A stretch of DNA of 64,000 nucleotides. Source: an uncultured bacterium. GTDB lineage: Bacteria; Babelota; Babeliae; Babelales; JABCYS01. This document shows, one piece after another, positions 1,444 through 60,587 of the stretch. The translations under genes were made by a program, and so were the position numbers. The stretch lies in NCBI GenBank assembly GCA_963705705.1, contig CAVPKK010000004.1, forward strand, positions 24,112 to 88,111. Direction: 5' to 3'. The first letter of the stretch is position 1, and every line of letters begins with the position of its first letter. A model generated the notes under the pieces. The model was not told the DNA's origin, ran no database searches, and saw nothing but the letters and a program-made list of their open reading frames with translations.

Positions 1444-1869
1444 ATGAACCGCAAGCAGCTACTTTTCCTAAGCGTAATGATTACAACCATTCCATCATTT
1501 GCCATGGATGCAGAAAATATGAGAAAGCATGAAGCTTTTATCATGAACTGCCGCACCTTAGAGCAGCGAGCGCGCATCCAAGTCAAAGAAACAGTAAATG
1601 AAATACTATGTCGTACTGACAATTCACAATGTGGTCTGCAAACAGATTGGCTCTTTTTTAAATATGTGGCACTCAACATCTTCGCAGAAAAAGCGCACGC
1701 GGGCGATTTTACTGATGTCGTGCTACGCGATTTTGTCAAAGATGAACGGGCGTGGTGGAAAGAGGCCGAAGGCGAATACTCAGCTCACTGGTTACTACCT
1801 ATCGAGCGGCGGATGCCTGAGTATTATAAAGAAATAATGACCAAGTTGGATGCGCTTAAAAGCAGCTAG
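1444..1869 (+). CDS. hypothetical secreted protein
   Basis: 141 aa. AAGGA upstream of the ATG. N-terminus MNRKQLLFLSVMITTIPSFAMD looks like a signal peptide. No known motif. Confidence 0.5.
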   Translation: MNRKQLLFLSVMITTIPSFAMDAENMRKHEAFIMNCRTLEQRARIQVKETVNEILCRTDNSQCGLQTDWLFFKYVALNIFAEKAHAGDFTDVVLRDFVKDERAWWKEAEGEYSAHWLLPIERRMPEYYKEIMTKLDALKSS

Positions 1870-2485: not shown

Positions 2486-3403
2486 ATGACGCAATTAATT
2501 CAAATGCGTTCGCGCATTAAGGCTATTAATACGATTGCAAAAATTACACATGCCATGCAATTAATTGCCATGGCAGACCACATCCGGCTACGCGAGCGCA
2601 AATCAAATTTTGAACGTTATCAGCACGCCATTGGTGATCTGCTTCGTCAATTAACTATGATGCGCAAAAAAACTGAGCAAGACGAACATTATCTGGCGAC
2701 GTCTAAAAAGGCGGAAAAAGTTCTTCTAATTATTATTGGTTCACAAAAAGGTTTGTGCGGTTCATTCAACAGCAACGTATTATACGAAGTTGGCAAAATG
2801 CTAAGCACGGAAACTTATGAGCAAGCGGATCTCGTTATCATTGGGAAAAAGGTAAAGGATTACTTCAAGCCGTTTCGCCAGAATCTACCATTCCAAACAA
2901 GAATTGTCGCTGAATACAATGATTTTGTTTGGGCAAACATGGGCACGATCGGCAAATCAATTTTAGCTCAGGCGCTTGACCCAGAACTTGGCTACACCAA
3001 AGTTGTATTATACGGTAATCGGCCAGAAGGTTTTTTTTCGCAGCGAATTATTGCCACGCAACTCTTTCCGATTGTGCCAGTTACTGAGTTAACCACCATG
3101 GTCGCGGAATTATCACCCGATGAATCAGCGCTCGATCTTAGGGCATTAGCGGCTGAACAAAAAGAAGGAGTTATGCAGGATCCAGAAGTTATTTTTGTTG
3201 CCGTAGAACAACTATATCTTTTATCAACCGTTGAATTTGTACTCTTACAATCGCTCTTGGCTGAGCAGGCATCACGATTTGTTTCCATGGATGCCGCGAC
3301 GCGTAATACTAAAAAACTTCGTGAGACCATGCAGATACAATTTAATAAATTGCGTCAGGGTAAAATAACCAAGGAACTCACTGAGCTGGCGAGTAATGTC
3401 TGA
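2486..3403 (+). CDS. atpG: F-type ATP synthase gamma subunit
   Basis: 305 aa. N-terminus MRSRIKAINTIAKITHAMQLIAMA and C-terminus FNKLRQGKITKELTELASN are the conserved gamma-subunit terminal helices. No other atp genes are adjacent. Confidence 0.8.
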   Translation: MTQLIQMRSRIKAINTIAKITHAMQLIAMADHIRLRERKSNFERYQHAIGDLLRQLTMMRKKTEQDEHYLATSKKAEKVLLIIIGSQKGLCGSFNSNVLYEVGKMLSTETYEQADLVIIGKKVKDYFKPFRQNLPFQTRIVAEYNDFVWANMGTIGKSILAQALDPELGYTKVVLYGNRPEGFFSQRIIATQLFPIVPVTELTTMVAELSPDESALDLRALAAEQKEGVMQDPEVIFVAVEQLYLLSTVEFVLLQSLLAEQASRFVSMDAATRNTKKLRETMQIQFNKLRQGKITKELTELASNV

Positions 3404-8006: not shown

Positions 8007-11000
8007 ATGACCGGGATTTTATCTACCCGCAAACCACTATTTTGGTTTATTGCCGTATCATTTTCAGTCGCAGGCATTTGGTTTGCTATCAAAAATTACA
8101 GTGTTGCCTTTCCCATCGCACAAGTTGATATCAAATTTTCGCGCAAAGAAGCAATCGAAGAAGCAAAAAAGATTTGTGAAAAGTTTCATCTCGGGCCACA
8201 AGAGAAGCACCGGCATGCAGCATCCTTTGAAACTGATTCTGCAACACAGTTGTATGTAGAACTCGAAGCCGGTGGCAGTACAGCCTTTAACCAAATAGTA
8301 ACCGGCACACTCTTTTCGCCTTATACATGGCAAGTTCGCCATTTCGTTGAAAATGATCCGCATGAAGTTACTGTATTATTAAAACCGGATGGCGCGCATT
8401 ATGGTTTTATTGAGAAAGTTTCTGAGAATATGCCAGGGCCTGCGTTGCCGGTCGAAGAGGCTAAGGAATTGGCTGAAGCGGCGACTAAACAATGGCTGGT
8501 AGGCGAAGCTTACCACCTTGTCGAATCATCAAAAGAGCAGCGGCCCAATGGGCGCGTAGATCATACCTTCACCTATGAATTGCCAGAGAAAATTGGTGAA
8601 GGAAGGTATCGTTATCAAATCGTAGTCAGTGGCGATAAAGTCACAACCGTTAAACCATCCGTCAAAGTACCCGAAAGTTTTTTCAAGCATTACAGTGCAT
8701 TACGATCGGGCAATCTTACAATTCGCCAGATTGCCGTTGTTTTGGTACTGCTCCTCTACTTAATCATCGGCTGTTATGGTGGCTTATTCTTTTTGCTGCG
8801 GCGCAGAGAAGTAATTTGGAAACAGCCAATTTTCTGGGCATTTATCATCGCTGGGGTTTGTGCGCTTGATGAGCTTAATGGGCTGCCGCTTGCATGGATG
8901 AAATATGATACTGCTACCTCAGTAAATAACTTCTTATTCATACAATTCACCAGCATAGTTTCATCATTTATTCAAACCTTCTTAGTTACCTTGCTCGTGG
9001 CAATTATAGTCGCTGAAGGATTCACACGGCTTGCATTCGGTGACAAGGTTCAGCTGTGGCGCGTCTGGTCGAAAAATGTTGCCGCAAGTCCGACAATCTT
9101 AGGCCAAACCATTGGTGGCTATCTATTAACCGGTACCGAAGTTGGATTCTCGATGGTTTTGTTTTACATCATCGCCCGGAATTATTTTGGTTGGTGGGTA
9201 CCATCGCAAACATTGGCAGACCCCAACGTGCTTGCCCGTTATGTACCGTGGTTACACCCTATTGCTGCGTCGCTGCATGCTGGTTTTTGGGAAGAATGTT
9301 TGTTCCGTGCAGTCCCATTAGGTGGCGCTGCATTATTAGGTGAACGGTTCGGTAAACGGAATCTATTCATTGCCATTGGCATGGTTGTACAAATACTAAT
9401 TTTTGGCGCCGGCCATGCCCATTATCCTGCCGAACCAGCAATTGCGCGTGTTATTGAGTTGATCATTCCTTCATTCATTTTCGGCGTACTATATTTACTA
9501 TATGGGCTCTTGCCAATTATCATTGCCCACTACACCTATGATGCCGCATTAATCGGCCTACCTATATTTATTTCGCATGCGCATGGCGGGATGATAGACA
9601 AGGTGATGGTTGTAATCGTCAGCTTAATTCCGCTCTGGATTATTTTATATCGTCTTATACAACAAGGCGGTTGGCGCACTGTGCCTTCCAATGCATACAA
9701 TAAGGCGTATGTACCATCCGAACACGAAGCAAAACAAGCGCACATCCCGTTATCCACGCATTCAGCATTATTGGATCGACTCGGCGCAAAAAAAGTTATC
9801 GCTTCAACTACTATCTGCTTTATTGGTGCTGTGGCTGCCTGGGGCTTCCTGACCAGATTTAATCATGATGAAACGCGCTTGCATCTGGACAGAGAAAAAG
9901 CAATTGCAATTGCGCAACAAGAGCTTGCCAAGCATAACGTTGATATTCAACAATGGCATGCTCTTTCGAACGTCAGTGGCGAACCCAAGCAACAAGATCG
10001 CTATATATGGCAAGAATTCTGCCGGCCATTGTACCGTGAGTTAATGCATGACTTTTATTTGCAACCACCGTGTTGGGAAATACGTTTTGCTACATGGCAG
10101 GGAAAATTAGCCGATCGTGCAGAAGAATATCATGTAAACATTGCACGAGATGGTACGGTTGTGCGGTACGAGCATAAGCTGCCGCAGCACAAGCCAGGTT
10201 TGTCATTAACAGAACATGAAGCGAGGGATGTTGCACATAAGGCTCTTTCGGCGGATGGATTTGATGTCGCAACCCTTAACGAAATGGGAGCTGTTGCCGA
10301 AAAGCAACCGGAACGCACCGATTGGAAACTCACCTTTGAGTTAAAGCCTGAAGCACTATCGATGCCTTCATGCAAATCTACTCCACCAGATAATAAACCA
10401 ACAAACCCAAGATTACGCATCGATGTCAAAATAAGCGGCGATAAAGTAACTGAAATTAAACGCTATGTGTATGTGCCGGAACAATGGTCGCGCGCAGATA
10501 AAGATAACAAGCAACTGCGGAAGGGCATCAAACATCTTATTACCTTATTTGGCTATGTTCTTATTGGCCTCGCTGCTTTATACGCGTTCATTACATTCCA
10601 ATGGACTGGCAAAGTTTTATTGTTAACGGTCTTAGGACTTCTTGCACTCGGATTATTTAGCGTCGTCAACATATATGACATGTTGGCATTTAAGCTAGAA
10701 ACGAGCCAATCCATTGCAGCACAACTGTTCCGGATGTTTAGCTTACTAACAGTGTTGACCATGTTCTTGGTTGGCATGCAGGCATTAGTCGCTGCTTGGT
10801 TGTATAAAATGACACATCTAAAAGAGAAAATCCGATTGTCAGCACTATCTTTGTCGATTGCCTTAGGCGCTACATGCGCGGCACTTCTTTCATGGATGGA
10901 CCGTATTTCTAGCTGCTGCGCTCCCGCATGGGCTCACTATCAAACCGCAGGGCTTGTTTTCCCGTTGCTTGGTACTGCAGTTTCTGTAATTGATCTATTT

Positions 11001-11402
11001 ATTAGTATCCTCATCAAACTCCTGGCTTGGGGATTGATGTGCAATGCAATCTGGTATTATGTTGGTGGACATAAACGTACTGTTTGGGCAAACACAGCAA
11101 TTATCTTACTCACTATGCTTACCGCACACATTATCGCGGAGCCGGCCTTAGAGCATGATATTCATGGTTGGGTGATTGGCAGCATCGGATTTAGCATTAT
11201 TCTAATCGTTGGTTATTACCTACTATATAGATTTGACCTGCGATTATTGATACCAACCGCAACAACCTATGTTATTATTTCGCAACTCAAGCAATTGATA
11301 CTGCATGCCTTCCCTGGCGCTTGGTTGGGAGCAGCGGCTGGATTGGTTATGGTAGCACTTCTAGCTTGGGGCTGTGTTTACCTCCTGCGAAAAAGAGAGT
11401 AA
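8007..11402 (+). CDS. large polytopic membrane protein with a central CPBP (CAAX/Abi) intramembrane glutamic protease domain and PepSY-like extracytoplasmic repeats
   Basis: 1131 aa, AGGAG RBS. CPBP motifs FWEECLFRAVPL (EExxxR), IFGAGHAHY (FxxxH) and IIAHYTYDAAL (HxxxD). Two soluble regions look like PepSY (FSRKEAIEEAKKI..., LDREKAIAIAQQEL...). Many TM helices on both sides. Confidence 0.7.
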   Translation: MTGILSTRKPLFWFIAVSFSVAGIWFAIKNYSVAFPIAQVDIKFSRKEAIEEAKKICEKFHLGPQEKHRHAASFETDSATQLYVELEAGGSTAFNQIVTGTLFSPYTWQVRHFVENDPHEVTVLLKPDGAHYGFIEKVSENMPGPALPVEEAKELAEAATKQWLVGEAYHLVESSKEQRPNGRVDHTFTYELPEKIGEGRYRYQIVVSGDKVTTVKPSVKVPESFFKHYSALRSGNLTIRQIAVVLVLLLYLIIGCYGGLFFLLRRREVIWKQPIFWAFIIAGVCALDELNGLPLAWMKYDTATSVNNFLFIQFTSIVSSFIQTFLVTLLVAIIVAEGFTRLAFGDKVQLWRVWSKNVAASPTILGQTIGGYLLTGTEVGFSMVLFYIIARNYFGWWVPSQTLADPNVLARYVPWLHPIAASLHAGFWEECLFRAVPLGGAALLGERFGKRNLFIAIGMVVQILIFGAGHAHYPAEPAIARVIELIIPSFIFGVLYLLYGLLPIIIAHYTYDAALIGLPIFISHAHGGMIDKVMVVIVSLIPLWIILYRLIQQGGWRTVPSNAYNKAYVPSEHEAKQAHIPLSTHSALLDRLGAKKVIASTTICFIGAVAAWGFLTRFNHDETRLHLDREKAIAIAQQELAKHNVDIQQWHALSNVSGEPKQQDRYIWQEFCRPLYRELMHDFYLQPPCWEIRFATWQGKLADRAEEYHVNIARDGTVVRYEHKLPQHKPGLSLTEHEARDVAHKALSADGFDVATLNEMGAVAEKQPERTDWKLTFELKPEALSMPSCKSTPPDNKPTNPRLRIDVKISGDKVTEIKRYVYVPEQWSRADKDNKQLRKGIKHLITLFGYVLIGLAALYAFITFQWTGKVLLLTVLGLLALGLFSVVNIYDMLAFKLETSQSIAAQLFRMFSLLTVLTMFLVGMQALVAAWLYKMTHLKEKIRLSALSLSIALGATCAALLSWMDRISSCCAPAWAHYQTAGLVFPLLGTAVSVIDLFISILIKLLAWGLMCNAIWYYVGGHKRTVWANTAIILLTMLTAHIIAEPALEHDIHGWVIGSIGFSIILIVGYYLLYRFDLRLLIPTATTYVIISQLKQLILHAFPGAWLGAAAGLVMVALLAWGCVYLLRKRE

Positions 11403-11502
11403 TATCTTGGCGATTTGGTGGCTGCGCCACCTAAACTTTGCGTCGCTTGCTTGGTGCTTTAGCCCAACCTCGCGCCGCTGAGTTGTATACGAAGTCAAAG
11501 CA

Positions 11503-11530
11503 GGGAAGCACTCGCTTCCTTGTTTGTTCT
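11503..11530 (+). terminator. candidate intrinsic terminator after the CPBP gene
   Basis: GGAAGC-ACTC-GCTTCC hairpin followed by TTGTTTGTTCT. Confidence 0.45.
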
Positions 11531-11561
11531 CTACCAACCAATTCCTTGAGGGCCGTTTTTT

Positions 11562-12959
11562 ATGGTTATTTCGTTTTTCCAGATGATCACCCGTCCCATG
11601 TTTGGCTCGTTCGAACGCGAAGAGTACAAAAAGTTTTTACGGATGGGATTAATCTTTACCACCCTCATTGGTTCATACTGGACCATGCGCCCGCTCAAAG
11701 ATGCAATTTTTTCCGAGCTCGTTGGTGCTGCAGCAATTCCCTGGGCTAAAACGGCATCTCTCATAATCCTCATCCCAACCGTAATGTTTTATACCCGGTT
11801 ATTGGATAAATATTCCCGCGAAAAAATGTTCTATATCCTCTCAGCATTTTACGGGATCACCCTGCTACTTTTTGCACTCGTATTTATTTCACCAATCGGT
11901 CTTGGCAGTGCTGAAGAAATAGCAGCACGTTCAGGCGCTGTAGCTATTCTTGATGATGCACTTGGCTATTTGTGGTATGTCTACGTAGAAAGCTTTGGTT
12001 CTCTGATCATTGCGCTTTTCTGGGCAATCGCATCTGACACAACAATGCCAGAATCAGCTAAAAAAGGGTTTCCTTTTGTAGTCTGCTTAGGCCAAATCGG
12101 CGGTATTGTTGGACCACGTTATCTTTCTCGCCTACCTCGTTATCTAAACTTTGAGACTAGTGCATTAACAGTTGCCATTGTTGGCTGCTTTGTACTTTTG
12201 GTAAGCGCATTCTTTACCTATTTCCTTAAAGCAACTCCTGCGCATCTACTTACCTCTTTCCATGGTAAAAACGAAGCTACAGAGAAAAAAGAACAAGAAC
12301 CTGGCTTCCTTGAAGGTCTCAAGTTAGTGCTCGCACACAACTATTTGATCAGCATGTTTGCTGTTTACTTCTTCTACGAGTTCATCGTTACCATTTTTGA
12401 CTTGCACTTTAAATTTGCAGCTGCATCACAATACAAAGGTCTTGCACTTGCAGAGTATCTTTCACACTACGGCTCAATGGTAAACACCGTAGCACTCCTT
12501 TGCTTATTGCTTGGTGTAAGTAACATTACTCGTTATCTTGGCATCACAATCGCATTGGTCATTCTGCCTATCATCATCTTCGGTGCACTGATTGGCTTTA
12601 ACATTATCAGCCACTTGGAATTCTTATTCTGGCTCATGGTAGGCTCTAAGGCTATCAACTATGCACTTAATGGTCCGACCATGAAGCAACTATACATTCC
12701 AACTACGCATGATGTTCGCTTCAAGTCATCTGCTTGGATCGAAACATTCGGCTCTCGCGCTTCTAAAGAAGGCGGATCACTATTCAACATGCTGCTTGGT
12801 CCATTGACCACCAAGTATGGCGTAGTTGCCGGCCGTGCGATGCACGCGATGTGGGCATCATATGTAGGCTACGCAATGGTTGCCGTTTGGGTATTCATTG
12901 CCGCATTCTTGGGCAAAACTTACAACCGCGCTATCGAAGAGAAACGCGTAGTCTGCTAA
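11562..12959 (+). CDS. nucleotide transporter, Tlc/NTT (ATP:ADP antiporter) family, paralog 1
   Basis: 465 aa, polytopic. YWTMRPLKDAIF and WYVYVESFGSLIIALFWAIASDTTMPESAKKGFPF match the Tlc/NTT signature (E.WGS...LFW.FAN.IT..EAKRFYP). The start could instead be the ATG at 11583. Confidence 0.8.
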   Translation: MVISFFQMITRPMFGSFEREEYKKFLRMGLIFTTLIGSYWTMRPLKDAIFSELVGAAAIPWAKTASLIILIPTVMFYTRLLDKYSREKMFYILSAFYGITLLLFALVFISPIGLGSAEEIAARSGAVAILDDALGYLWYVYVESFGSLIIALFWAIASDTTMPESAKKGFPFVVCLGQIGGIVGPRYLSRLPRYLNFETSALTVAIVGCFVLLVSAFFTYFLKATPAHLLTSFHGKNEATEKKEQEPGFLEGLKLVLAHNYLISMFAVYFFYEFIVTIFDLHFKFAAASQYKGLALAEYLSHYGSMVNTVALLCLLLGVSNITRYLGITIALVILPIIIFGALIGFNIISHLEFLFWLMVGSKAINYALNGPTMKQLYIPTTHDVRFKSSAWIETFGSRASKEGGSLFNMLLGPLTTKYGVVAGRAMHAMWASYVGYAMVAVWVFIAAFLGKTYNRAIEEKRVVC

Positions 12960-13891: not shown

Positions 13892-15103
13892 CTATATTGC
13901 AGGGGCACTTGTATTCGTAGTATCAGCTATTGGGGCGAAGATCGGTGGCTTAGTTCCACCATAATTGTTTAATAAACCATACGGTGAACCATTATTAAAG
14001 GCAATGTTATTGGCAAAAAGCGCAGTTGCAGCAGGCGAAATATAAGCAGCATAGTTTTCGAATCCATAGCCAGCGTTATAATATGCATTACAATTTTGTA
14101 TCACAGCATTCGCATCTGGAGCGTCTGCTGTACCAATCAGGAAACCACTATTTGCGTTGAAGATTGCAGAACAGTTATTTATAAAACTCGATGAGCCTTC
14201 AGCACACACAAAACCATAAGAATTATTATTTGCTGAACAATGATCAATATAAACACCCGGAGCATCAATAAATATTCCAGCGTTCGCACAGTTTGTTACA
14301 ACAACATCTCGAATTGATATTTGTGCCGTTGACCCTTCGATAAGAATGCCAAATGCCGGGGCATTTTGAACAATACCATTCTTTACTGTCACATCATTCG
14401 CACTAAATACAACGATTCCATCGTTACCGCCGGCCACGGTCAGAGTGTTACCATTCAGATTAAACAAAACTTGGTTGCTTGAAATAGTAATTGGAGCCGT
14501 AATAGTTGCATTTCCACACAATATATAGGTACCCGGTACAGTAATCAGGTATCCACCTGCAACATCGGCCGGCGTAAGATAGAAAATATCGCAGCTTGGA
14601 ACGCAAGAAGAACAAGCTAGAAGATTTCCTAGCACAGAGAACGTGCCATTAAAGTCTTGAACTAGCTCAGTTTTGATATCTATAAGTTCACTGAATGTGC
14701 CGTTGAAGTCATCAATAATTAGTGCTTCGAGGTCTGCTAAAACTGAGAATGTGCCATTAAAATCTGCAACGAGTGTTGCCTCAATAGCAGCAAGCATCGT
14801 GTAAGCACCACTAAGATCACAAGATCCGGAAGCACATGGGCAAGCTAAAAGGGCCTCAAGCATTGAGAATGTGCCATTGAAATCATTAACAACAAGAACT
14901 TCAAGACTATCCAAATCAGATTGGATTGATTCTAGCATTGAGAAAGTACCATTGAAATCCGCTTCGAGTTCTGCACAACAATTAGGACGCAGACAACTTC
15001 TTTCAGCCATATCCCCGCTCATATCCATTGCGGATACATATTCCGGTGCGGCCAGCGCGCCAATACACAGAGCGGCCATTAGGGTTTGTTTAAACGACAT
15101 CAT
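13892..15103 (-). CDS. secreted DFNGTFS-repeat protein with C-terminal right-handed parallel beta-helix domain (paralog A)
   Basis: The start is moved to ATGATG at 15103 (AGGAG RBS; matches the paralog N-terminus MMSFKQTL). Signal peptide, 5 canonical DFNGTFS repeats, Cys clusters (ACPCASGSCD), then PbH1-like repeats (NCANAGIFID, HCSANNNSYGF, NNCSAIFNANSGF, NCNAYYNAGYGF). Confidence 0.75.
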   Translation of the reverse strand: MMSFKQTLMAALCIGALAAPEYVSAMDMSGDMAERSCLRPNCCAELEADFNGTFSMLESIQSDLDSLEVLVVNDFNGTFSMLEALLACPCASGSCDLSGAYTMLAAIEATLVADFNGTFSVLADLEALIIDDFNGTFSELIDIKTELVQDFNGTFSVLGNLLACSSCVPSCDIFYLTPADVAGGYLITVPGTYILCGNATITAPITISSNQVLFNLNGNTLTVAGGNDGIVVFSANDVTVKNGIVQNAPAFGILIEGSTAQISIRDVVVTNCANAGIFIDAPGVYIDHCSANNNSYGFVCAEGSSSFINNCSAIFNANSGFLIGTADAPDANAVIQNCNAYYNAGYGFENYAAYISPAATALFANNIAFNNGSPYGLLNNYGGTKPPIFAPIADTTNTSAPAI

Positions 15104-15310
15104 TAGAAACTCCTTTTTCCCGATTGATACAAACAACAAGCGCTATCCCGAGTATCAATCACTTCTCGAGATGGCACATACCTTTCAGCGATACAAGTTA
15201 AGATTAACTATGGCTCAGAATGAATGGCAAGCGATGATATCAAAATGAGACGATACCGCTTTACACAAAAAGCTTTTTGGCGACACTCAGTCTAATCTTG
15301 TTTTGAGACA

Positions 15311-15372: not shown

Positions 15373-17397
15373 TTAAGGCAATGTTGGTACTGCCACATTA
15401 GTGAATGGGTTGACGGTGGCAGTGGTCAACAGCGTAGTGTATGAAGTCTCCATAAAGGTACCGGTTAGATTAGGTATAGAGAAATTTGCGACATCGTTAT
15501 TTTGAGCCCAGTTATTGTGATATCTGTTCAAGCCAGCAGTCAATTCAGCTCCTCCAGTTGAATCATCAAATATGCCATAACCCTTGTTATTATCGAACTG
15601 TGAATTGCTTACAGCAAGATTAATCGTGCTTCCATCAACGTTCAAGCCATAAGCATTTGTACCAACCGAAAATTCCTGAGCATTATTTGCAATACAAGCA
15701 TCAACATATCCGAGTTGCAAGTTATATACCCTAAAACCAGCTGCACCAATTGCATTTGGTCCCGTAGTAATTGTGCTTCCTATAATGGTTTGTACGGTGC
15801 AATGATCAAATACAATATTAAATTGAGTATCTTCTATTTGATCATTTCTGGTCGTAGAAAAACCTGATGCTTCGCCGCCACTAAAATTTTCAATGACGTC
15901 AGCTTGAGAATCTCGACAGACAATGCTGGAGCAAAAGTTAATAAAATGGCCGCCATCTGCAAAACCATTTCCTACAGATAAATTAGCGATCGCATGCGCG
16001 TTAAAGCGTTCCACTATCCCGCCTAGAATACTGGACCAGCTGAATCCTGCAGCGCCAGCAGAAGGCAAAGCGCCTCCAGAGACTATTGATGATGCCGAGC
16101 AATCGGTCATGATAATATTTTTAGAATCCGAAGCCTCGAAACCAGCGGCCATACCAATTTTTGCTATAAGATTATTGGCAACACAAGAACGTAGTATTAC
16201 ATCAAAAGTACCAATAGTAGTAAAACCAGCAATAATTGCTGCGAGCCCAGAGCCACCATCTGTATGCGCATTTGATTGGCAATTCAGGTATGTAATAGTC
16301 TCAGAATTATTGTCACAGAAGCCAGCAAGCCGTGATGCATTTGGTGCGATTATATTGCTGCTCTGACAGTTTTCATACAATACATCTGTTGAATTCTGTA
16401 TATAAGCACCTGCAGCAGCAACCGCAAATCCATAGTCGGAAGTTACCGCAACTGTTTGTCCAAATGAAAACTGACAATTGGTGACAAGCAAATCGCGGAC
16501 ACTGTCTCCAACTAAAGCTATTGAATCTGATGCGGCTACTGTTGCATCAAGTGAAAACCCTGTTTGGAGAATGTTTACATGATCAATGGCTATTGAAAAT
16601 GAGGAACGGTTCAATTGAATGCCGAACTGAGAGAAGTTTCTGATATACCCGTTTACAATCGCGATGTTACTGTTGTTGCTGGTCAATGAAATAGCAGTAC
16701 ATAAAGCGGTATTGTTAACCTGCTGAATTGTGTGCTCGCTCAGATCTAAGTAAACATTACGCGCAGCAATAGTAATAGCCGTCGTCCCAGGAGCAATAGG
16801 AGCAAATGCAATATCCTCCGCAAGACAATAAACTCCCGGTGCACTAATAACATACCCGGCCGGACCAACATCTGCTTGAGTAATAGATATTGGTGTACCG
16901 CAAGGTGCCAATGCCCCAATATCGATAAGAATCTCTTCCAGCATGCTAAAGGTGCCATTAAAGTCTTGAACTAGCTCAGTTTTGATATCTATAAGTTCAC
17001 TGAATGTGCCGTTGAAGTCATCAATAATTAGTGCTTCAAGGTCTGCTAAGACTGAGAATGTGCCATTAAAGTCTGCAACGAGTGTTGTCTCAATCGCGAC
17101 AAGCATTGTAAAAGCACCATTAAGATCACATGACCCGGCAGCGCACGGGCAAGCTAAGAGAGCCTCAAGCATTGAGAATGTGCCATTAAAGTCAGCAACT
17201 AGCTCAGCTTTAATATCAATCAATTCGCTGAATGTACCATTGAAATCTGCTTCGAGTTCTGCACAGCAATTCATCTTAGGGCGCAAACAGCTTCTTGTTA
17301 TTGCATCCTCGCTCATATCCATAGCGGATACATATTCCGGGACGAACAGCGCGCCAACACACAGAGCGGTTAATAGGGTTTGTTTAAACGACATCAT
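15373..17397 (-). CDS. secreted DFNGTFS-repeat protein with large C-terminal parallel beta-helix domain (paralog B)
   Basis: 674 aa, GGAG RBS. Signal peptide MMSFKQTLLTALCVGALFVPEYVSA, 5 DFNGTFS repeats, then a long region of beta-helix-type repeats rich in N/G/S/A (NCQSS, NCQSNAH, DCSASS, FDHCTVQ). Confidence 0.8.
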   Translation of the reverse strand: MMSFKQTLLTALCVGALFVPEYVSAMDMSEDAITRSCLRPKMNCCAELEADFNGTFSELIDIKAELVADFNGTFSMLEALLACPCAAGSCDLNGAFTMLVAIETTLVADFNGTFSVLADLEALIIDDFNGTFSELIDIKTELVQDFNGTFSMLEEILIDIGALAPCGTPISITQADVGPAGYVISAPGVYCLAEDIAFAPIAPGTTAITIAARNVYLDLSEHTIQQVNNTALCTAISLTSNNSNIAIVNGYIRNFSQFGIQLNRSSFSIAIDHVNILQTGFSLDATVAASDSIALVGDSVRDLLVTNCQFSFGQTVAVTSDYGFAVAAAGAYIQNSTDVLYENCQSSNIIAPNASRLAGFCDNNSETITYLNCQSNAHTDGGSGLAAIIAGFTTIGTFDVILRSCVANNLIAKIGMAAGFEASDSKNIIMTDCSASSIVSGGALPSAGAAGFSWSSILGGIVERFNAHAIANLSVGNGFADGGHFINFCSSIVCRDSQADVIENFSGGEASGFSTTRNDQIEDTQFNIVFDHCTVQTIIGSTITTGPNAIGAAGFRVYNLQLGYVDACIANNAQEFSVGTNAYGLNVDGSTINLAVSNSQFDNNKGYGIFDDSTGGAELTAGLNRYHNNWAQNNDVANFSIPNLTGTFMETSYTTLLTTATVNPFTNVAVPTLP

Positions 17398-22208: not shown

Positions 22209-23612
22209 ATGACTACTGCACAAAAAGTTATTCGCTACTTTTATCCTGACTTAAAACAGGAAGAGATAAGAAAATTTGGCATATTATCGGTTATTTTTTT
22301 TCTTATCATCGGAACTTATTGGTTACTTCGTCTGCTTAAGTACACCATTTTCCTTAAGATCGCTTTTCCGGAATGCCATGGTTGGGCATCTGAACAGGGC
22401 CGTTTGTTTCAGCCAACGGCAAAGAAATTATCACCCTGGATAGTGTTGATCATGGTGCTCATCTACTCCAAATTGGTAGATAAGGTAAAAAAGCACCAGC
22501 TCTTTTATATAATCTGTACTTTCTATGCCATATTGTTTTGCGGATTCGCTGGCATCCTTTTGCTAAAAGATCTCTACGGAACCCAAATGATAGGCAAATT
22601 AGCGTTGGCCACACTTGGCTGGGTAAGCTATTTTGCCATTGAAAGCTTTGGTTCATTAGTTGTTTCTTTATTTTGGGCATTCACTAATAGCACTACCGAT
22701 TCCGATTCTGCCAAACGCGGGTTTCCATTCATTGTGGCTATGGCACAACTAGCAGCCATTTTTGGATCTGGCACATTATTCTTTTCTGGTTCTCTTGGAA
22801 CACTGTGGCCTATTTTGCTATTGGCCTCTATCTTGGTTTTGGCCGTTATTCCTTGCGTGCGTTATTTCGAGCAACACGTTCCCGCATCAATGATGGTTGG
22901 TAACGTTGCTGCGGCGGCAACTGAGAAAAGGAAGGAAGGCTTCATTGAAGGATTTGTTTCAGGAATTGTATTACTATTTTCTCGCTCCTATTTACTTGGC
23001 GTGCTTGTAATTTCAACCTTCTACGAAGCGGTATCACAAATTGTGGAATATCAGATGCAAGCATATGCCTGCATGGCACCAGCGTATAAAAGCGAAATCG
23101 CTTTTGCCCAGTTTATGAGCCTGTATGGCATCGCGACCAATGTTGTTTCATTCTTGGTTGCATTGCTTGGCACCGGCTACATTCTTAAACGATTTGGTGC
23201 CCGCATTAGTTTGTTAGTTTACCCTATCACCTTTGGCCTCACCCTGTTAGGGCTATATACCTATTTCAAATTCCACCCTTCCCCGGCGTTACTATTATGG
23301 GCAACCTTTGTTGCAGTGGTAATCTTAAAGGGAGTTGGTTATGCGGTGAATTCGCCAACCAAGGAAATGATGTATATCCCGACCAGCAAGGATGCCAAAT
23401 TCAAATCTAAAGGTTGGATCGATACCTTCGGTAGCCGCTTTTCTAAATCCGGCGGCGCCCAAGTTAATGACATGTTTAAAACCAACCTTCCCGATCTTAT
23501 GTTTTATGGTTCTATGATCGGCTTTGGCGTGGTCGGCATCTGGATTGTTGCGGCCATCTATGTTGGCACCAGGAACAAACAACTCGTTGAATCTCGCCAA
23601 ATCATTGAATAG
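22209..23612 (+). CDS. nucleotide transporter, Tlc/NTT family, paralog 2
   Basis: 467 aa, AAAGGA RBS. YWLLRLLKYTIF and YFAIESFGSLVVSLFWAFTNSTTDSDSAKRGFPF are collinear with 11562..12959. Confidence 0.8.
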   Translation: MTTAQKVIRYFYPDLKQEEIRKFGILSVIFFLIIGTYWLLRLLKYTIFLKIAFPECHGWASEQGRLFQPTAKKLSPWIVLIMVLIYSKLVDKVKKHQLFYIICTFYAILFCGFAGILLLKDLYGTQMIGKLALATLGWVSYFAIESFGSLVVSLFWAFTNSTTDSDSAKRGFPFIVAMAQLAAIFGSGTLFFSGSLGTLWPILLLASILVLAVIPCVRYFEQHVPASMMVGNVAAAATEKRKEGFIEGFVSGIVLLFSRSYLLGVLVISTFYEAVSQIVEYQMQAYACMAPAYKSEIAFAQFMSLYGIATNVVSFLVALLGTGYILKRFGARISLLVYPITFGLTLLGLYTYFKFHPSPALLLWATFVAVVILKGVGYAVNSPTKEMMYIPTSKDAKFKSKGWIDTFGSRFSKSGGAQVNDMFKTNLPDLMFYGSMIGFGVVGIWIVAAIYVGTRNKQLVESRQIIE

Positions 23613-41962: not shown

Positions 41963-42293
41963 TAAAAAATAATTATTTCTCAGCAGTGCCATAAAAAAAG
42001 GCCCTCAGAAATCGAATTCAATTGATTTTCGCAAATAAGGTAATAGCTTTATTCATGGAAATACCTATTTTTCAACCAATTCGATGGTAGATATATTGCT
42101 GCTGAATCGCTCTTTTTTTTAATTCTTCGCTTTATTAAAAATTGCTCTGCCTGTAACATTTTGGACAGCAATAGGCGCATCCATTGGACAAAGAGAGCCA
42201 ATTTCATGTATTTTTAACTAAAATTACATAGGCGAGCCCAAAATTCTGCAAAATCGCTGGACTCTTTTTTTGAATGAACAGCCAAGAAATTTA

Positions 42294-42872
42294 ATGATAC
42301 ATATGAGCCAAAGAACAATCCTCTCCCCATCAATTCCCATCGAAGATTTCCGCAGCTTCTATTGGCTCAAAAAAGAGCTTCAGAATTTTTGTAGCAAGCA
42401 GGGATTATCAACGTCTGGCAGTAAGCACGAACTACAGAACGGAATTGAGCAATTTTTGAATAGCGGCACGATAGAAAAATCGAACCATAAAGTGCGTCAA
42501 TCTATATCTTCGGAAGAAGAGTTGTCACTTGATACTACTGTACCTCAAGGTTTTACTTGCACACGCAAAGCTCGCGACTTTTTAATTGAACATGCCGGCA
42601 GAAAATTTAAATATACTGTAGCCCTGCAACGCTATATTAAAACAAACCCAGGAATAACATTTCGGCAGCTCATTGATGAATGGAAGCGCCAAGCTAATCT
42701 AAAAAAAGCGGGATTAAAAACTAAAATAGGCAGCCAGTTCGAATATAATCAGTTCACCCGCGATTTTTTTGCCGATCACCGCAATAAAGGCAAATCTCGG
42801 GAAGAATATATTGCGGCATGGTATGCTGTGCGCAGCTCCCGCGGGCCACGAAAACATCTGCCAAAAGATTGA
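42294..42872 (+). CDS. SAP-domain-containing protein
   Basis: WLKKELQNFCSKQGLSTSGSKHELQNGIEQFL matches the SAP helix-extended-helix motif. The start is uncertain (TTG 42270, ATG 42294 or 42303). Confidence 0.55.
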   Translation: MIHMSQRTILSPSIPIEDFRSFYWLKKELQNFCSKQGLSTSGSKHELQNGIEQFLNSGTIEKSNHKVRQSISSEEELSLDTTVPQGFTCTRKARDFLIEHAGRKFKYTVALQRYIKTNPGITFRQLIDEWKRQANLKKAGLKTKIGSQFEYNQFTRDFFADHRNKGKSREEYIAAWYAVRSSRGPRKHLPKD

Positions 42873-49153: not shown

Positions 49154-49681
49154 TTAATCTGCCTTACAGGCATCACCATGATGGCAACATTTGTCGCCAC
49201 AGGTTTCGCATTCTTCTTCTTTTTGGCCTCTGGTCCAAATATGCTCATCTGGCATCTCATGGAAAAGTTCCAAATATTTTTCTGCGAAATCATCGTAGGC
49301 AATCTTTGCCTGCTCAGGATCTAATTTTTTATTTACATGATCACGTGGATCGTGATGAATGAATCGGCCGGCAAAATGCTCGCAAAAACTTTGATACTCT
49401 TGGGTAAAGAGCAAAAATGTGTGCCAAAAATCATCTACTTCCTTACTAAACATGGGGAATTTACTTGCGGGATAAAGAGCACACAAGGTTAGATATCGCC
49501 TTAATTCTTGTTCATGCTTTTTTGCCGTTTGGCATGGTACATTATAATCCTTTTTATAACGCTCAATTACACGATCCATTGAAAAGCCTTGAACAGCTTT
49601 TACAACAGCCATGGGTTGTCGGTGAGCAGCCGCATGCATTGATGTAATCACCAGAAAAGATGCAAGAATTGATTTCTTCAT
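49154..49681 (-). CDS. secreted protein, glycine-rich-domain-protein (GRDP)-like core with Cys/His-rich tail
   Basis: 175 aa, signal peptide. VDDFWHTFLLFTQEYQSFCEHFAGRFIHHDP resembles the W-H-x-H/F...Y..FC...HH motif of GRDP-like proteins. C-terminus CETCGDKCCHHGDACK. Confidence 0.4.
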   Translation of the reverse strand: MKKSILASFLVITSMHAAAHRQPMAVVKAVQGFSMDRVIERYKKDYNVPCQTAKKHEQELRRYLTLCALYPASKFPMFSKEVDDFWHTFLLFTQEYQSFCEHFAGRFIHHDPRDHVNKKLDPEQAKIAYDDFAEKYLELFHEMPDEHIWTRGQKEEECETCGDKCCHHGDACKAD

Positions 49682-53598: not shown

Positions 53599-54096
53599 CT
53601 AATCAAAATCACCAAAATCAACCATCAAATTTTTATTGCCGACAAGCTCAATAAATTTAGAAATGTCTTTTGTGGCTATGACGGTTGTGGCTGTGTTTAC
53701 CAATGGATGGAAGCCGGCTTGTTCATGTTTGAAGAGATTGCTATCCAATATAACAGTGACCTTGCGCTGCACATCATTAATGAGCGCGAAGAGCGTAACC
53801 GAACCTGGTTCAACGCCGAGGGTTTCCCGCAATAGTTCAGGACTGGCAAAACGAAGTTCGGGCGCATGTAGATATTTGGATAATTTCTTCAGGGCTATGG
53901 CCGTGTCATATACGGCAACCACCAAATAAAGATTGCCCTTGCTATCCTTCAAAAATAGGTTCTTAACCCAGGCTCCTGGGATTGGAATTGCGGATGCCAC
54001 CTTAACTGCTTGCTCGGCAGTAAATAATGGCTCATGCTGGTAGGTGGTATAAGGAATTGATAGCTCATCTAATTTCTTGAATACGTTTGCTGACAT
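53599..54096 (-). CDS. ProX/PrdX-type prolyl-tRNA synthetase-associated trans-editing domain protein
   Basis: 165 aa. LDELSIPYTTYQHEPLFTAEQA, KNLFLKDSKGNLYLVV, and GFHPL. Confidence 0.75.
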   Translation of the reverse strand: MSANVFKKLDELSIPYTTYQHEPLFTAEQAVKVASAIPIPGAWVKNLFLKDSKGNLYLVVAVYDTAIALKKLSKYLHAPELRFASPELLRETLGVEPGSVTLFALINDVQRKVTVILDSNLFKHEQAGFHPLVNTATTVIATKDISKFIELVGNKNLMVDFGDFD

Positions 54097-56437: not shown

Positions 56438-56446
56438 ATAAAGAAA

Positions 56447-56479
56447 GGGCCACTCGTTATGAGTGGCCCTGTTGTTTTC
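56447..56479. terminator. bidirectional hairpin terminator between convergent genes
   Basis: GGGCCACTC-GTTAT-GAGTGGCCC, followed by TGTTGTTTTC and preceded by AAAGAAA. Confidence 0.65.
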
Positions 56480-56483
56480 GCCT

Positions 56484-57452
56484 TTATTTCCCTTTCTCCG
56501 CGAGAGCTTTTTGCAAAGCTCTATCTGCATAGCTCATACCCAGAACTGCTAATACAACGCGCAGGCCACGGAATTCAAGGCCATCCCGCAATGACTTGAG
56601 GCCTTGATTCTTAACCAATGCACATAAGGTTTGCCAGGTTGATGGGAATTCGCGCAGTAAATCATCTTGCATGCATTTCCTGAGTCGGGCAGCGGGATGT
56701 GTCATCACCGCTGCAGCAACACCTGCCGTTAATGTCGCCGCAAGTTTACGCGCCTGCTCATTATCAAGATACGGTTTATAAACTCTCTCGACCAATGGCG
56801 GAAGAGCTTTAAACCCAGCTACGAAGCCGGCATCTCGGAATGCGACTGGCCAGAATCCTCGGTATAAACCACGGAGACCGTTGGTTGCATACACCTCATT
56901 GAATGCTTGGCGAGTCGACAACAATACATTGCGATTTTCATTCGCATACTGTTGACGCTGCGCCAATAGTTCCTGCGGGCAGCTTACTAATGCGCCAAGT
57001 CCTCCTGCGGCAGTTGCTGTTGCCAATCGTTGGCCATCAGTTAATGGTTGATGGTTCACAGCCATAACTGCCTGGTTCAAGCCTTCCGCACAGCCATTCT
57101 GCACAGCGGTGATTGGGGCCATACCTGCAACCATGGTTCCGAAACTCGAATACCAAACGCGCGGACTAAGTGATAAGTTGCGCAAGCGCTGCGACCAGCT
57201 CTTGGCGACCTGACCAGCCGTTGGCTGCATGGCATTGGAGAAATAGAAGCACGGTGTACCCGTGATTGGCTCTAGACTTCCAAGCGCAGCGCCAACGACG
57301 GTATTTCTCGCTAATGTTGCAAGCGCCGATTTCGGCGGCGTGCTTTTGTTTTCTTCTGCATTATCCATGGCAAACATGGAGACGCAGAATGTTACGCTGA
57401 CCATTAATAGGTTCAGCACCTTATTGATGTAATGCATCGCATTACCTTTCAT
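56484..57452 (-). CDS. mitochondrial carrier family (MCF)-like protein with degenerate signatures
   Basis: 322 aa. Three repeats of about 95 aa. Each has a G/A-rich helix followed by a P-x-x-x-x-x-x-x-Q-like motif (TPCFYFSNAMQ, CPQELLAQRQQ, HPAARLRKCMQ) and a G-x-x-x-Y/L-R-G-type second motif (GLRGLYRGFWPVAFRDAGF, GLKSLRDGLEFRGLRV). Confidence 0.5.
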   Translation of the reverse strand: MKGNAMHYINKVLNLLMVSVTFCVSMFAMDNAEENKSTPPKSALATLARNTVVGAALGSLEPITGTPCFYFSNAMQPTAGQVAKSWSQRLRNLSLSPRVWYSSFGTMVAGMAPITAVQNGCAEGLNQAVMAVNHQPLTDGQRLATATAAGGLGALVSCPQELLAQRQQYANENRNVLLSTRQAFNEVYATNGLRGLYRGFWPVAFRDAGFVAGFKALPPLVERVYKPYLDNEQARKLAATLTAGVAAAVMTHPAARLRKCMQDDLLREFPSTWQTLCALVKNQGLKSLRDGLEFRGLRVVLAVLGMSYADRALQKALAEKGK

Positions 57453-59193: not shown

Positions 59194-59342
59194 ATGTTGC
59201 ACAGGCCAAGCTTGGGAAAATTATTTCCATTATTTTGGTTTAGTCGCAGCCCATGGGCGCGGACTCTAATCCCACATTGCAGCCTTTTCATTTAGCTACT
59301 ATGATGCTTAGCCCCCTCAGCGGAATATCAAGGATCATAAAA

Positions 59343-60587
59343 ATGTTAATCAATCTTTCATTTCTAAAAACACACCGCGATTACCGATACCTATTCCTGG
59401 GCCAAGCGATTTCGGCCGTAGGCAGTATGATGACCTATATCGCCCTGCCGTATCAGATGTATGAACTCACAAAGTCATCATTTTCCGTTGGCATGATCAG
59501 CATCGCGGAACTTTGCCCACTGCTCATTACAGCATTTTTAGGCGGGGCATACGCCGATCGGCTTGATCGCAGAAAGTTATTACTACGCTCAGAGTTTGCA
59601 CTTGCCGCTGCAACTGCATTACTTGCGTGGTATACCTGGTATACCACCCCGAGCCAATGGGTGCTTTATATTGCGGCGGCTGTCATATCGGCCATTAACG
59701 GATTTCATCGGCCGGCACTGGAAGCGTTGACGCAACAATTAGGACGACCTGAAGATTTTGCGGATATTAGCGCATTGAATTCTCTGAAAAGCATTTTAGG
59801 ATCAGTAGGTGGACCATCACTCGCCGGTTTTTGCATTGCGGTTTTTGGATTACCAGTGGCTTACCTCATTGATGCGGCAAGTTTCGCATTGAGCCTACTG
59901 GCCATCATGCAAATAAAACAAATCACATTCGTGAGATCTGAAGCGCCCGTTGATTCGCCACTTACCGACATAAAGGAAGGGATACACTATGCCTGGCAGC
60001 GGCAGGAACTGATTGGATCATATGCCGTCGATTTCTGCGCCATGATCTTTGGCATGCCAACCGCATTATTCCCGGCAGTTGCTGCTTCATTTGCCGATTC
60101 TTCAATAACTAGCGCACAGGCTGTTGGATATTTATATTCAGCGCCGGCGGCGGGCGCATTGATTGCCACCATATTTAGTGGCTGGACACATCGGATACGA
60201 TCATTTGGCAAGGCAATATCATTATCTGCACTAATTTGGGGCATCGGGATTATTGGCTTCGGCTTTGCCACTAATTTTTGGCTGGCAGTTGCATTTCTCA
60301 TGCTTGCTGGAGCGGCTGATGCCAAGAGCGGAATTTTCCGGATGACACTTTGGAATATGACTATACCTAAACATCTGCGCGGCCGTTTGGCTGGCATTGA
60401 AATGATTAGTTATATGAGTGGTCCTATGCTTGGTAACGCCGAATCTGGTTTGGTGGCTGCTGCATTCGGCACCAGCTTTTCAATTATTTCTGGCGGTTTT
60501 ATGTGTGTCTTGAGTGTTGGCCTGTGCGCACTCGCCCTGCCAAAGTATTGGCAATTTAGGTGGACGGGTTCAATCGAGCAGAGTTAG
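59343..60587 (+). CDS. MFS transporter (EntS/MFS_3-like)
   Basis: The track ORF is trimmed to ATG 59343 (MLINLSFLKTHRDYRYLFLGQAISAVGS, a typical MFS_3 N-terminus). About 12 TM helices and a GGAYADRLDRRK loop motif. Confidence 0.8.
   Translation: MLINLSFLKTHRDYRYLFLGQAISAVGSMMTYIALPYQMYELTKSSFSVGMISIAELCPLLITAFLGGAYADRLDRRKLLLRSEFALAAATALLAWYTWYTTPSQWVLYIAAAVISAINGFHRPALEALTQQLGRPEDFADISALNSLKSILGSVGGPSLAGFCIAVFGLPVAYLIDAASFALSLLAIMQIKQITFVRSEAPVDSPLTDIKEGIHYAWQRQELIGSYAVDFCAMIFGMPTALFPAVAASFADSSITSAQAVGYLYSAPAAGALIATIFSGWTHRIRSFGKAISLSALIWGIGIIGFGFATNFWLAVAFLMLAGAADAKSGIFRMTLWNMTIPKHLRGRLAGIEMISYMSGPMLGNAESGLVAAAFGTSFSIISGGFMCVLSVGLCALALPKYWQFRWTGSIEQS

Follow-up and report, generated by a model that had tools for sequence, protein, structure and literature searches.

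The window analyzed here is a 64-kb stretch of DNA from an uncultured bacterium (contig CAVPKK010000004.1), and on its minus strand it carries a gene for a protein of the mitochondrial carrier family (MCF, also termed SLC25). A preliminary description, made from the sequence alone, had reported an open reading frame (ORF) of 322 amino acids at this place, and the ORF list contains it with exactly these limits (56484..57452). The likelier start is Met6 (ATG at 57437), at which the protein begins in three close homologues and in the NCBI gene call. An AAGG Shine–Dalgarno-like site lies 7 nucleotides 5′ of this codon (57445..57448, minus strand), and no such site was seen ahead of the Met1 ATG (57452) when the sequence was read directly. 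As the homologue and NCBI starts and the AAGG site favor Met6, the true product is probably a protein of 317 amino acids. Downstream of the stop codon, a terminator scan detected an intrinsic-terminator-like hairpin (56446..56470, Table 1). The GC content of the gene is that of its surroundings, and no paralogue of the carrier was found elsewhere in the 64-kb window.

The Pfam Mito_carr profile (PF00153), which the preliminary description had proposed as a check on its assignment, matched the protein significantly, with 63.1 bits (E = 2.1e-17; gathering cutoff 22.3). Two of the three repeats passed individually, with the best stretch at residues 140–211, and repeat 1 was too degenerate to pass alone. 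The three motifs quoted in that description were located at residues 66–76 (TPCFYFSNAMQ), 158–168 (CPQELLAQRQQ), and 252–262 (HPAARLRKCMQ), the second-motif stretch GLRGLYRGFWPVAFRDAGF corresponds to residues 192–210, and the repeats, expected to be of about 95 residues, are 97, 93, and 93 residues long. When the family alignment was cut into three repeats and these were compared as profiles with hhalign, repeats 1 and 2 matched with 94.9% (E = 5e-8), repeats 1 and 3 with 96.4% (E = 1e-9), and repeats 2 and 3 with 99.0% (E = 3e-18). By these profile scores the three repeats are homologous, far past chance.

The confident AlphaFold (AF2) model obtained with an alignment of 80 sequences (pLDDT 85.4, pTM 0.80) is built of six long helices, with short matrix helices in three sets; an N-terminal helix (residues 5–31) and a linker (residues 32–42) are of low confidence and lie outside the bundle. 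With 3 sequences, the pLDDT was 36. In a Foldseek comparison with the PDB, all matches at E ≤ 1e-3 (16/16) were mitochondrial carriers, including UCP1 (8hbv_A, E = 9e-9, TM 0.71/0.79), ADP/ATP carriers, and carrier subunits of Tetrahymena complex IV, and the next, unrelated match followed at E of about 0.07. The threefold pseudo-symmetry, the absence of which from a structural model had been named beforehand as an argument against the assignment, was found in the AF2 model, in the hhalign comparison of the repeats, and in the Foldseek matches. The comparison of the single sequence with PDB sequences gave only a weak best match, UCP2 (2lck; E = 0.006, phmmer), which marks the protein as a very divergent member of the family. 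No NCBIfam family matched it, and Pfam SLC25_like (PF18405) reached only 13.7 bits against a cutoff of 34.5. Clearly, the gene encodes a true but highly divergent member of the SLC25 superfamily in a bacterium, and the fold predicted for it is the six-helix threefold carrier fold.

Relatives, source bacterium, and inheritance of the carrier

A word-indexed homologue search, with the single protein or a three-sequence profile, found just 3–4 sequences. Exhaustive searching with HMMER raised this to 1464 representatives at E ≤ 1e-3, of which 385 also reached E ≤ 1e-10. Three relatives are close (58–66% identity), two of them truncated. A scan of a genome collection with the carrier protein gave 57 pattern matches, none of which was confirmed, and BFVD returned generic carrier similarity only, with no viral link. 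From 197 full-length members we built a neighbor-joining (NJ) tree, which is crude and carries no support values, and read three groups off it. Group A, of the protist type, comprises about 90 sequences plus outgroups, and all of its named members are eukaryotic: the diatoms Nitzschia, Cyclotella, Seminavis, and Trieres, as well as Micromonas and Arcella. The bacterial clade, composed of groups B and C, has 104 leaves. The carrier of the window falls into group B (84 leaves), the members of which mostly bear N-terminal signals, and group C (20 leaves) is monophyletic, signal-less, and nested within B. In the feature counts given below, the groups have 93 (A), 84 (B), and 20 (C) members. The tree suggests that the nearest relatives of the bacterial clade are orphan protist carriers of diatoms, Micromonas, and Arcella. 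The preliminary description had treated MCF proteins as eukaryotic, with few bacterial examples; the bacterial side was thereby understated, as the carrier belongs to a bacterial clade of about 104 representative clusters. One group B member (P0056, MDP3889292.1) is already labeled 'MC/SLC25 family protein [bacterium]' by NCBI.

All seven group B contexts that we examined (7/7) were dense bacterial loci, with genes for UvrB, FtsA/FtsZ, PheT, L21, L34, EF-Ts, RRF, or trigger factor, and ankyrin-repeat genes were present nearby. The members of group C have a polar N-terminus and an 'NHPLWxxKTR' motif in helix 1. The two group C loci examined were also bacterial, but unlike those of group B. One of them (L092, carrier at 10001..10843) has two genes of the YopJ-type Acetyltransf_14 family and ankyrins; the other (L093, carrier at 10001..10966) has full metabolic genes, namely ETF-QO and aldehyde and alcohol dehydrogenases, and an outer-membrane-protein beta-barrel. 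The group C members may be injected effectors of another lineage.

The RadA protein encoded in the window was 85% identical to that of one metagenome-assembled genome (MAG), 58–68% identical to those of dozens of MAGs of Babeliales, Babeliaceae, Dependentiae, or TM6, and about 40% identical to those of other phyla. Judged by RadA, the source bacterium is a member of Dependentiae/TM6 (Babelota), and as such an obligate intracellular parasite of protists. A Legionella origin, expected from the GC content, the nucleotide transporters (NTTs), and the eukaryote-like domains, was ruled out by RadA. The remaining content of the window is consistent with Dependentiae: the housekeeping genes for TsaE, AroA, thymidine kinase, RadA, and ABC-F, many transporters, GNAT and NUDIX enzymes, and proteins with eukaryote-like RING, DnaJ, and SAP domains. 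By a simple hydrophobicity criterion, 32 of the 60 genes in the window (53%) have signal-like or anchor-like N-termini, and 44% was reported for Chromulinavorax destructans (PMC6561590). The two NTTs noted in the preliminary description are both real TLC-family genes (11562..12959 and 22209..23612). They lie 33–45 kb from the carrier gene and are not linked to it. The TLC profile matched the product of the second gene end to end. That of the first (plus strand) was matched in two stretches, the better of which covers only residues 11–346 of 465 (95 bits), and weakly by MFS_1; it may be a divergent or specialized NTT paralogue.

The surroundings of the carrier gene are shared with other contigs. 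Three loci (L001–L003) are syntenic with the window, and in them the neighboring MFS_3 protein is 82–87% identical to that of the window, as compared with 58–66% for the carrier. A distant locus (L091) has the same order of tRNA_bind/NUDIX, carrier, and tRNA_edit genes, with neighbors 49–58% and carriers 31% identical, and the adjacency of carrier and tRNA_bind genes is kept in L085, L086, and L090. From the neighborhoods shared with L001–L003, L091, L085, L086, and L090 we conclude, on the evidence of synteny, that the carrier gene is old and vertically inherited in the bacterial lineage, and it has diverged faster than its syntenic neighbors. Additionally, L089 and L003 have a Glyoxalase–EVE–MarR trio in common. 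Two of the syntenic loci, L002 and L003 (ENA sample ERZ25039465, contigs 83571 and 83570), are near-identical, and the carrier gene in them is truncated or frameshifted. As the adjacent MFS_3 gene of L003 is also split, this looks like assembly indel errors rather than pseudogenes.

N-terminal signal, binding site, and gates

The preliminary description had mentioned an extra hydrophobic helix at the N-terminus. The helix is real, and we now read it as an export signal or signal-anchor. Its best 19-residue stretch (residues 12–30) has a mean Kyte–Doolittle value of 1.82, as compared with 0.95–1.32 for the six carrier helices, and it is the sole segment with a negative insertion energy in a crude sum of Hessa-scale values. 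The n-region, MHYINK, has a charge of +1, and it is followed by an h-region of 17 residues (VLNLLMVSVTFCVSMFA) and by Ala28, which precedes Met29-Asp30; the residue at −3 is a non-canonical Met. When signals were called by hydrophobicity, charge, and motif heuristics, signal-like N-termini were present in 73/84 members of group B, in 1/93 of the protist-type members, and in none of group C (0/20). Within group B, the charge of the n-region was at least 0 in all of these signals (73/73) and at least +1 in most of them (55/73), and the N-termini were about 17–20 residues longer.

The signal of the carrier ends in a small residue followed by Met and an acidic residue (MFA-MD), and 31/73 of the group B signals have such an ending, as compared with 11.9 ± 2.9 in shuffles. 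A small-Met-[Asp/Glu/His] ending was also found in 7 of the 32 signal-like N-termini of the window, whereas shuffles gave 1.0 ± 1.0 and reached seven in 1/1000 cases. The genes concerned are 1444..1869(+), 13892..15139(−), 15373..17397(−), 23731..25221(+), 27229..27942(+), 49154..49681(−), and the carrier gene itself, 56484..57437(−), and the variants of the ending are SFA-MD, VSA-MD, LHG-MH, LHT-MH, and MFA-MD. Possibly, this ending serves the export signals of Dependentiae as a cleavage or sorting motif peculiar to the lineage; some signals of Babela massiliensis were termed 'atypical' (PMC4378268). As unrelated exported proteins encoded in the window end their signals in the same way, the carrier appears to bear an export signal of the bacterium's own type, which is missing from its eukaryotic relatives.

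Two other explanations of the N-terminus fared less well. The idea that Met29 is a relic of an ancestral eukaryotic start codon fitted the distance from this Met to the helix-1 glycine (a median of 20 residues, as compared with 21 in the protist relatives), but it is weakened by the occurrence of the same ending on unrelated exported proteins of the window. Alternative initiation at Met29 is possible. Cys23 is invariant in close homologues, as if the protein was a lipoprotein. However, the residues that precede it, V-T-F, A-T-I, or V-L-I, are unlike a lipobox, which requires a small residue at −1, and we rejected this idea.

In the phmmer alignment with UCP2 (2lck), R206-D207 of the carrier aligned with the 'RN' of contact point II. 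The residues at this point are G[IVLM] in carriers of nucleotides, R[QHNT] in carriers of carboxylates, and R[DE] in carriers of amino acids, a rule with known exceptions, and glycine carriers combine RD at contact point II with an uncharged contact point I (PMC6769469). In the carrier of the window, contact point I is G110-M111, uncharged and without Arg, and contact point III is R298. The R[DE] signature was present in 85/93 members of group A, 78/84 of group B, and 20/20 of group C (183/197 in total), and the residues of the putative site are strongly conserved across about 200 members: R206 in 96–100%, R[DE] in 93%, R295 in 97–100%, R298 in 88–95%, E61 in 91–95%, and the Gln braces in 74–100%. 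The three contact points (I uncharged, II R-D, III Arg), together with the nearly invariant R295 and E61, point with modest confidence to an amino acid or a similar small zwitterion as the substrate, and not to a nucleotide. The proposal of the preliminary description that the carrier serves to tap host nucleotide pools was not supported, as the nucleotide signature G[IVLM] is replaced by R-D at contact point II of the carrier and by R[DE] in the 183 members mentioned.

Group A carriers such as P0157, P0161, P0170, and P0193 bear the automatic JGI label 'SLC25A21 2-oxodicarboxylate transporter'. In group A, contact point II is R-E in 88% of members. This is a form of the amino-acid signature R[DE] and not the R[QHNT] of carboxylate carriers, so that the automatic label probably misnames this orphan protist subfamily. 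In one locus (L087), the carrier gene (10001..10948) is followed after 78 bp by a Trp_Tyr_perm gene on the same strand (11026..12225), a possible operon tying the carrier to amino-acid uptake, although this is a single and weak association.

The gates of the carrier are degenerate. Where the even helices (H2, H4, and H6) end, no conserved [FY][DE]xx[KR] motif of a cytoplasmic network was found, either in the carrier or in groups A, B, and C; this motif is the less conserved one in the family (PMC6769469). In the matrix Px[DE]xx[KR] network, Pro and the Gln brace are retained in all three repeats (3/3 each), but the only charged residues are E161 in H3 and R258 in H5, which form one pair of three. 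Replacements of K72 by Ser and of D255 by Ala remove the H5–H1 pair on both sides, whereas the clade consensus retains 2/3 of the matrix salt bridges. The strength of these networks in SLC25 carriers is linked to the strictness of exchange. One matrix salt bridge of three and the lack of a cytoplasmic network suggest that the carrier works in a low-barrier, uniport-like mode rather than by strict exchange.

Cellular location, alternative explanations, and known systems

The reading that we favor, with a probability of about 0.55, is that a carrier derived from a eukaryote is inserted via Sec into the inner membrane of the bacterium itself, in the mitochondrial orientation, and imports a metabolite of the host. 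The strongly hydrophobic signal would engage the signal recognition particle (SRP) and Sec, and in the usual N-in/C-out arrangement of such a signal the N-terminus of the carrier would come to lie in the periplasm. The six moderately hydrophobic helices would then integrate into the inner membrane, which would leave the Lys/Arg-rich 'matrix' loops on the cytoplasmic side. The loops of the matrix side have 4, 3, and 4 Lys and Arg residues, as compared with 2, 0, and 1 on the other side, and the positive-inside rule predicts from this bias that the matrix loops face the bacterial cytoplasm. Orientation, membrane polarity, and lipid setting would thus be those of mitochondria, and the carrier could act as an importer or exchanger of a host metabolite beside the NTTs and other transporters. 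Functional insertion of mitochondrial carriers into the membranes of bacteria is known, and their expression improves when a bacterial signal peptide is added (PMC8961550). Membrane effectors of type IV secretion systems (T4SSs) mostly avoid segments of SRP-grade hydrophobicity (PMC12981334), and the 'mitochondrial carrier family transporters' of Babela massiliensis were counted among importers into the bacterium (PMC4378268). Machinery for Sec, type II secretion, and type IV pili is encoded in TM6 genomes, whereas an injection system is missing from those published (PMC4378268, PMC4776705, PMC6561590), and in Babela massiliensis type II secretion was the only secretion system detected (PMC4378268). 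Among the 60 genes of the window that were scanned, no gene of a secretion system, T4SS included, was found. Moreover, Dependentiae genomes lack the biosynthesis of amino acids, nucleotides, and lipids (PMC4378268, PMC4776705, PMC6561590), and TM6 bacteria, in which amino-acid biosynthesis is missing, rely on few transporters (PMC4776705). Taken together, the signal, the charge bias, the function of carriers in bacteria, and the lack of a known Dependentiae exporter of polytopic proteins favor residence of the carrier in the inner membrane of the bacterium itself. Carrier identity, fold, repeats, host phylum, the presence and distribution of the signal, the binding-site residues, and vertical inheritance are shown here, and we infer from them where the carrier lies, how it is oriented, which class of substrate it takes, and how it transports it.

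Several points weigh against this reading. Secreted soluble effectors of Dependentiae, such as ankyrin proteins, also have signal peptides (PMC4378268, PMC6561590), and about half of the genes in the window have signal-like N-termini, so the signal indicates export from the cytoplasm and not retention in the inner membrane. The helices of the carrier are only moderately hydrophobic, and Sec might translocate some of them. The gates are degenerate, with K72 and D255 replaced and no cytoplasmic network; the contact-point rule has exceptions, which makes R[DE] a pointer to a class; and the fast divergence of the carrier would also fit relaxed constraint or a role other than transport. The argument from the lack of a T4SS draws on the literature on other genomes of the phylum and on this 64-kb window, the grouping of the relatives on a crude NJ tree without support values, and the signal call on simple criteria.

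The preliminary description had likened the carrier to effectors such as LncP. On this model, spelled out here, the carrier would be exported into the host cytosol and inserted by TOM/TIM22 into the inner membrane of host mitochondria, where it would leak or exchange a metabolite, possibly ATP, to the benefit of the parasite. There is a precedent in LncP of Legionella pneumophila, translocated by Dot/Icm into host mitochondria (PMC3252375), and Chromulinavorax destructans replicates wrapped by a host mitochondrion and sheds outer-membrane vesicles (PMC6561590). Many presumed effectors of Dependentiae have signal peptides, and the carrier's signal is of the same type as those of other exported proteins. 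Moderate hydrophobicity of the helices would be expected for a chaperoned crossing of an aqueous compartment, evolution faster than that of the neighbors is typical of host-interaction proteins, and the two NTTs of the window would profit from a release of ATP. Nevertheless, we consider such an effector unlikely. The bacterium belongs to Dependentiae and not to Legionellales, nothing beyond Sec, type II secretion, and type IV pilus components has been detected in TM6, and the window has no secretion-system gene. Type II systems export folded soluble periplasmic proteins and not six-helix membrane proteins. The strongly hydrophobic N-terminus favors co-translational targeting to the inner membrane and is of the kind mostly avoided by T4SS membrane effectors, contact point II is not of the nucleotide type, and a better candidate for injection is the signal-less group C, which is encoded in other genomes with YopJ-type acetyltransferases.

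It is also conceivable, though rather improbable, that the protein has kept the SLC25 fold without alternating access and acts as a leak channel, a scaffold, or an insertase, as proposed for MTCH2 or discussed for Lpg1137, for which the term 'pseudo-carrier' has a precedent (PMC5621508), or that it is drifting to loss. One matrix pair of three (E161-R258) is left, no group has a cytoplasmic network, repeat 1 fails Pfam alone, the carrier diverges much faster than flanking genes, and both copies in ERZ25039465 are truncated or frameshifted. However, the strong conservation of the putative binding-site residues in about 200 members argues for a conserved ligand-handling pore, and the reduction of the networks extends to all of the clade, its eukaryotic members included, so it does not reflect recent decay. 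The ORF has no interruption and is equipped with a ribosome-binding site and a terminator, and the truncated copies are on contigs with split MFS_3, pointing to assembly indels. A nucleotide carrier in the bacterial membrane, parallel to the NTTs, would suit the two TLC/NTT genes and the thymidine kinase gene of the window, and nucleotide transport is known for both LncP and the carrier of mimivirus (PMC3252375; PMC8961550, reference 100); with R-D in place of G[IVLM] at contact point II here and R[DE] in 183/197 members, no Arg at contact point I (G110-M111), and the NTT genes unlinked at 33–45 kb, we give this little credence. As MCF genes are overwhelmingly eukaryotic and the assembly is of the metagenome type, an artifact of binning or assembly, by which host DNA ended up in a bacterial contig, also had to be considered. 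The tightly spaced bacterial flanking genes, the bacterial ribosome-binding site and terminator, and the matching GC content leave practically no room for it, and eukaryotic contamination was ruled out by synteny over independent assemblies, in which the same gene and neighborhood recur on independent contigs from other samples.

Location in the bacterium's own inner membrane can be extended to a broader scenario, which we put forward tentatively and at slightly less than even odds. Dependentiae may have domesticated a eukaryotic carrier by fusing it to a native Sec signal, and the product may now be a family found throughout the phylum, evolving fast and comprising at least 80 clusters (at 50% identity), which takes up amino acids or similar metabolites of the host. 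The carrier would then be the first SLC25 protein found to work naturally in a bacterial membrane, and group C would have become injected effectors secondarily. Such a natural signal fusion would mirror, in reverse, the laboratory use of bacterial signal peptides for the expression of carriers in Lactococcus.

MCF genes in bacteria, TM6 included, are already known and annotated. Bacterial SLC25 homologues have been described in Legionella (LncP, Lpg1137), Neorickettsia, and some members of the Chlamydiales and Rickettsiales. The carriers of Babela massiliensis (Pagnier et al. 2015, PMC4378268) belong to the same phylum and superfamily as the carrier of the window, a likeness drawn here from annotation and not from sequence, and their specificity is uncharacterized. 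They and the NCBI entry MDP3889292.1, which falls into the same signal-bearing group B as the carrier, are one-line annotations, unlike the present analysis of signal, topology, binding site, and clade. LncP (Lpw_31961/Llo1924) is likewise an SLC25-fold protein encoded by a bacterial intracellular parasite of protists and presumably acquired from a eukaryote. By its description, with which we compared the carrier, it belongs to Legionellales, is translocated by a type IVB system, has no N-terminal Sec signal described in the paper, and transports ATP, and its delivery needs Dot/Icm (PMC3252375). The carrier of the window differs from it in its Dependentiae origin, native export signal, contact point II of the amino-acid type, and degenerate gates. 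Lpg1137 (Pfam SLC25_like) resembles the carrier in being bacterial, highly divergent within the SLC25 fold, and degenerate in its motifs, but it is of a separate lineage and a Dot/Icm substrate, whereas the carrier passes Mito_carr and not SLC25_like.

The closest eukaryotic sequences are the protist carriers of Nitzschia, Cyclotella, Seminavis, Micromonas pusilla, and Arcella intermedia, with about 23–31% identity. They share with the carrier the unusual helix-2 signature APITA[IV]Q, R[DE], R295/R298, E61, and the absence of a cytoplasmic network, and have 2 of 3 pairs of the matrix network. They differ from it in the N-terminus, which is short and polar, with a median of 21 residues before the helix-1 glycine and a signal in only 1/93. 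The glycine carriers SLC25A38/Hem25p and other amino-acid carriers resemble the carrier at contact points II (RD) and III (Arg), and the glycine carriers also in their uncharged contact point I. This likeness is confined to three binding-site positions, and there is no specific sequence affinity.

In the searchable literature we found no account of the size of the bacterial clade, of a native-signal fusion absent from a protist sister group, of the amino-acid-type site, or of use in a bacterial membrane, and the clade of signal-fused carriers appears to be undescribed. SLC25 carriers are regarded as a eukaryotic invention tied to mitochondrial import, and the few bacterial ones studied are host-directed effectors. 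If the domestication scenario is true, a bacterium can itself insert the SLC25 fold and put it to use, and a second class of eukaryote-derived transporters stands beside the NTTs in energy and metabolite parasitism, which would help to explain how Dependentiae feed without amino-acid biosynthesis. The clade also offers naturally bacteria-adapted carriers for expression and structural work, and a testable substrate class for the orphan protist SLC25 subfamily. Should the carrier turn out to enter host mitochondria in the absence of a type IV system, an unknown export route for polytopic membrane proteins would have to exist.

Coordinates of the features and other observations in the window

The features of the carrier gene and its surroundings are collected in Table 1.

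Table 1. Features of the carrier gene and its neighborhood, with coordinates in the window.
Feature	Coordinates	Strand	Description and basis
Carrier coding sequence	56484..57437	−	317 amino acids from Met6, stop codon included; longest ORF extends to 57452
Candidate N-terminal export signal or signal-anchor	57369..57437	−	Residues 6–28 (MHYINK / VLNLLMVSVTFCVSMFA), then Met29-Asp30; hydrophobicity; kept in close homologues; low-confidence AF2 helix outside the bundle
Carrier repeat 1	57045..57335	−	Residues 40–136; H1 43–75 with degenerate PCFYFS; short matrix helices; H2 104–133 with clade signature APITAVQ; AF2, hhalign
Carrier repeat 2	56766..57044	−	Residues 137–229; H3 139–174 with PQELLA (E161); matrix helix 180–196; LYRG; H4 200–225; AF2, hhalign, Pfam
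Carrier repeat 3	56487..56765	−	Residues 230–322; H5 232–263 with PAARLR (R258); matrix helices; H6 292–321 with invariant R295 and contact point III R298; AF2, hhalign, conservation
Putative contact point II	56832..56837	−	R206-D207; R[DE] class signature; alignment to UCP2
Bidirectional intrinsic-terminator-like hairpin	56446..56470	.	Stem of 10–11 bp with 7 GC pairs; between the carrier gene and a convergent CPT-like kinase gene
MFS_3 transporter gene	59253..60587	+	Opposite strand to the carrier; Pfam; adjoins the carrier in L001, L002, and L003; context only
tRNA_edit-domain gene	53599..54096	−	Pfam; part of the order tRNA_bind/NUDIX, carrier, tRNA_edit; 58% identity to the L091 neighbor; context only

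Signal-like N-termini were also present on proteins on which they were unexpected, a MutS-family protein (25223..27232) and a RING-finger protein (28857..30017). The latter, encoded on the plus strand, has a C3HC4 RING finger with 25.4 bits, just below the 27-bit cutoff. Two pairs of genes have near-identical N-terminal signals within each pair. One pair, 13892..15139(−) and 15373..17397(−), shares MMSFKQTL..ALC.GAL..PEYVSAMDMS, and the signals of the other, 23731..25221(+) and 27229..27942(+), end in PLH[GT]MH. One of these four proteins has a right-handed beta-helix domain, and the others are without a Pfam match. The shared signals suggest a local paralogous expansion of exported proteins.

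A DnaJ domain is present in a protein of 386 amino acids (35792..36952, minus strand), and SAP and DUF6434 domains occur together in the product of 42270..42872 (plus strand); DUF6434 recurs beside a distant carrier locus (L084). Finally, a gene for the ATP synthase gamma subunit (2486..3403, plus strand; Pfam ATP-synt, 180 bits) stands alone between a YacP-like gene and AroA, both on the opposite strand, without the alpha and beta subunit genes that usually flank it.

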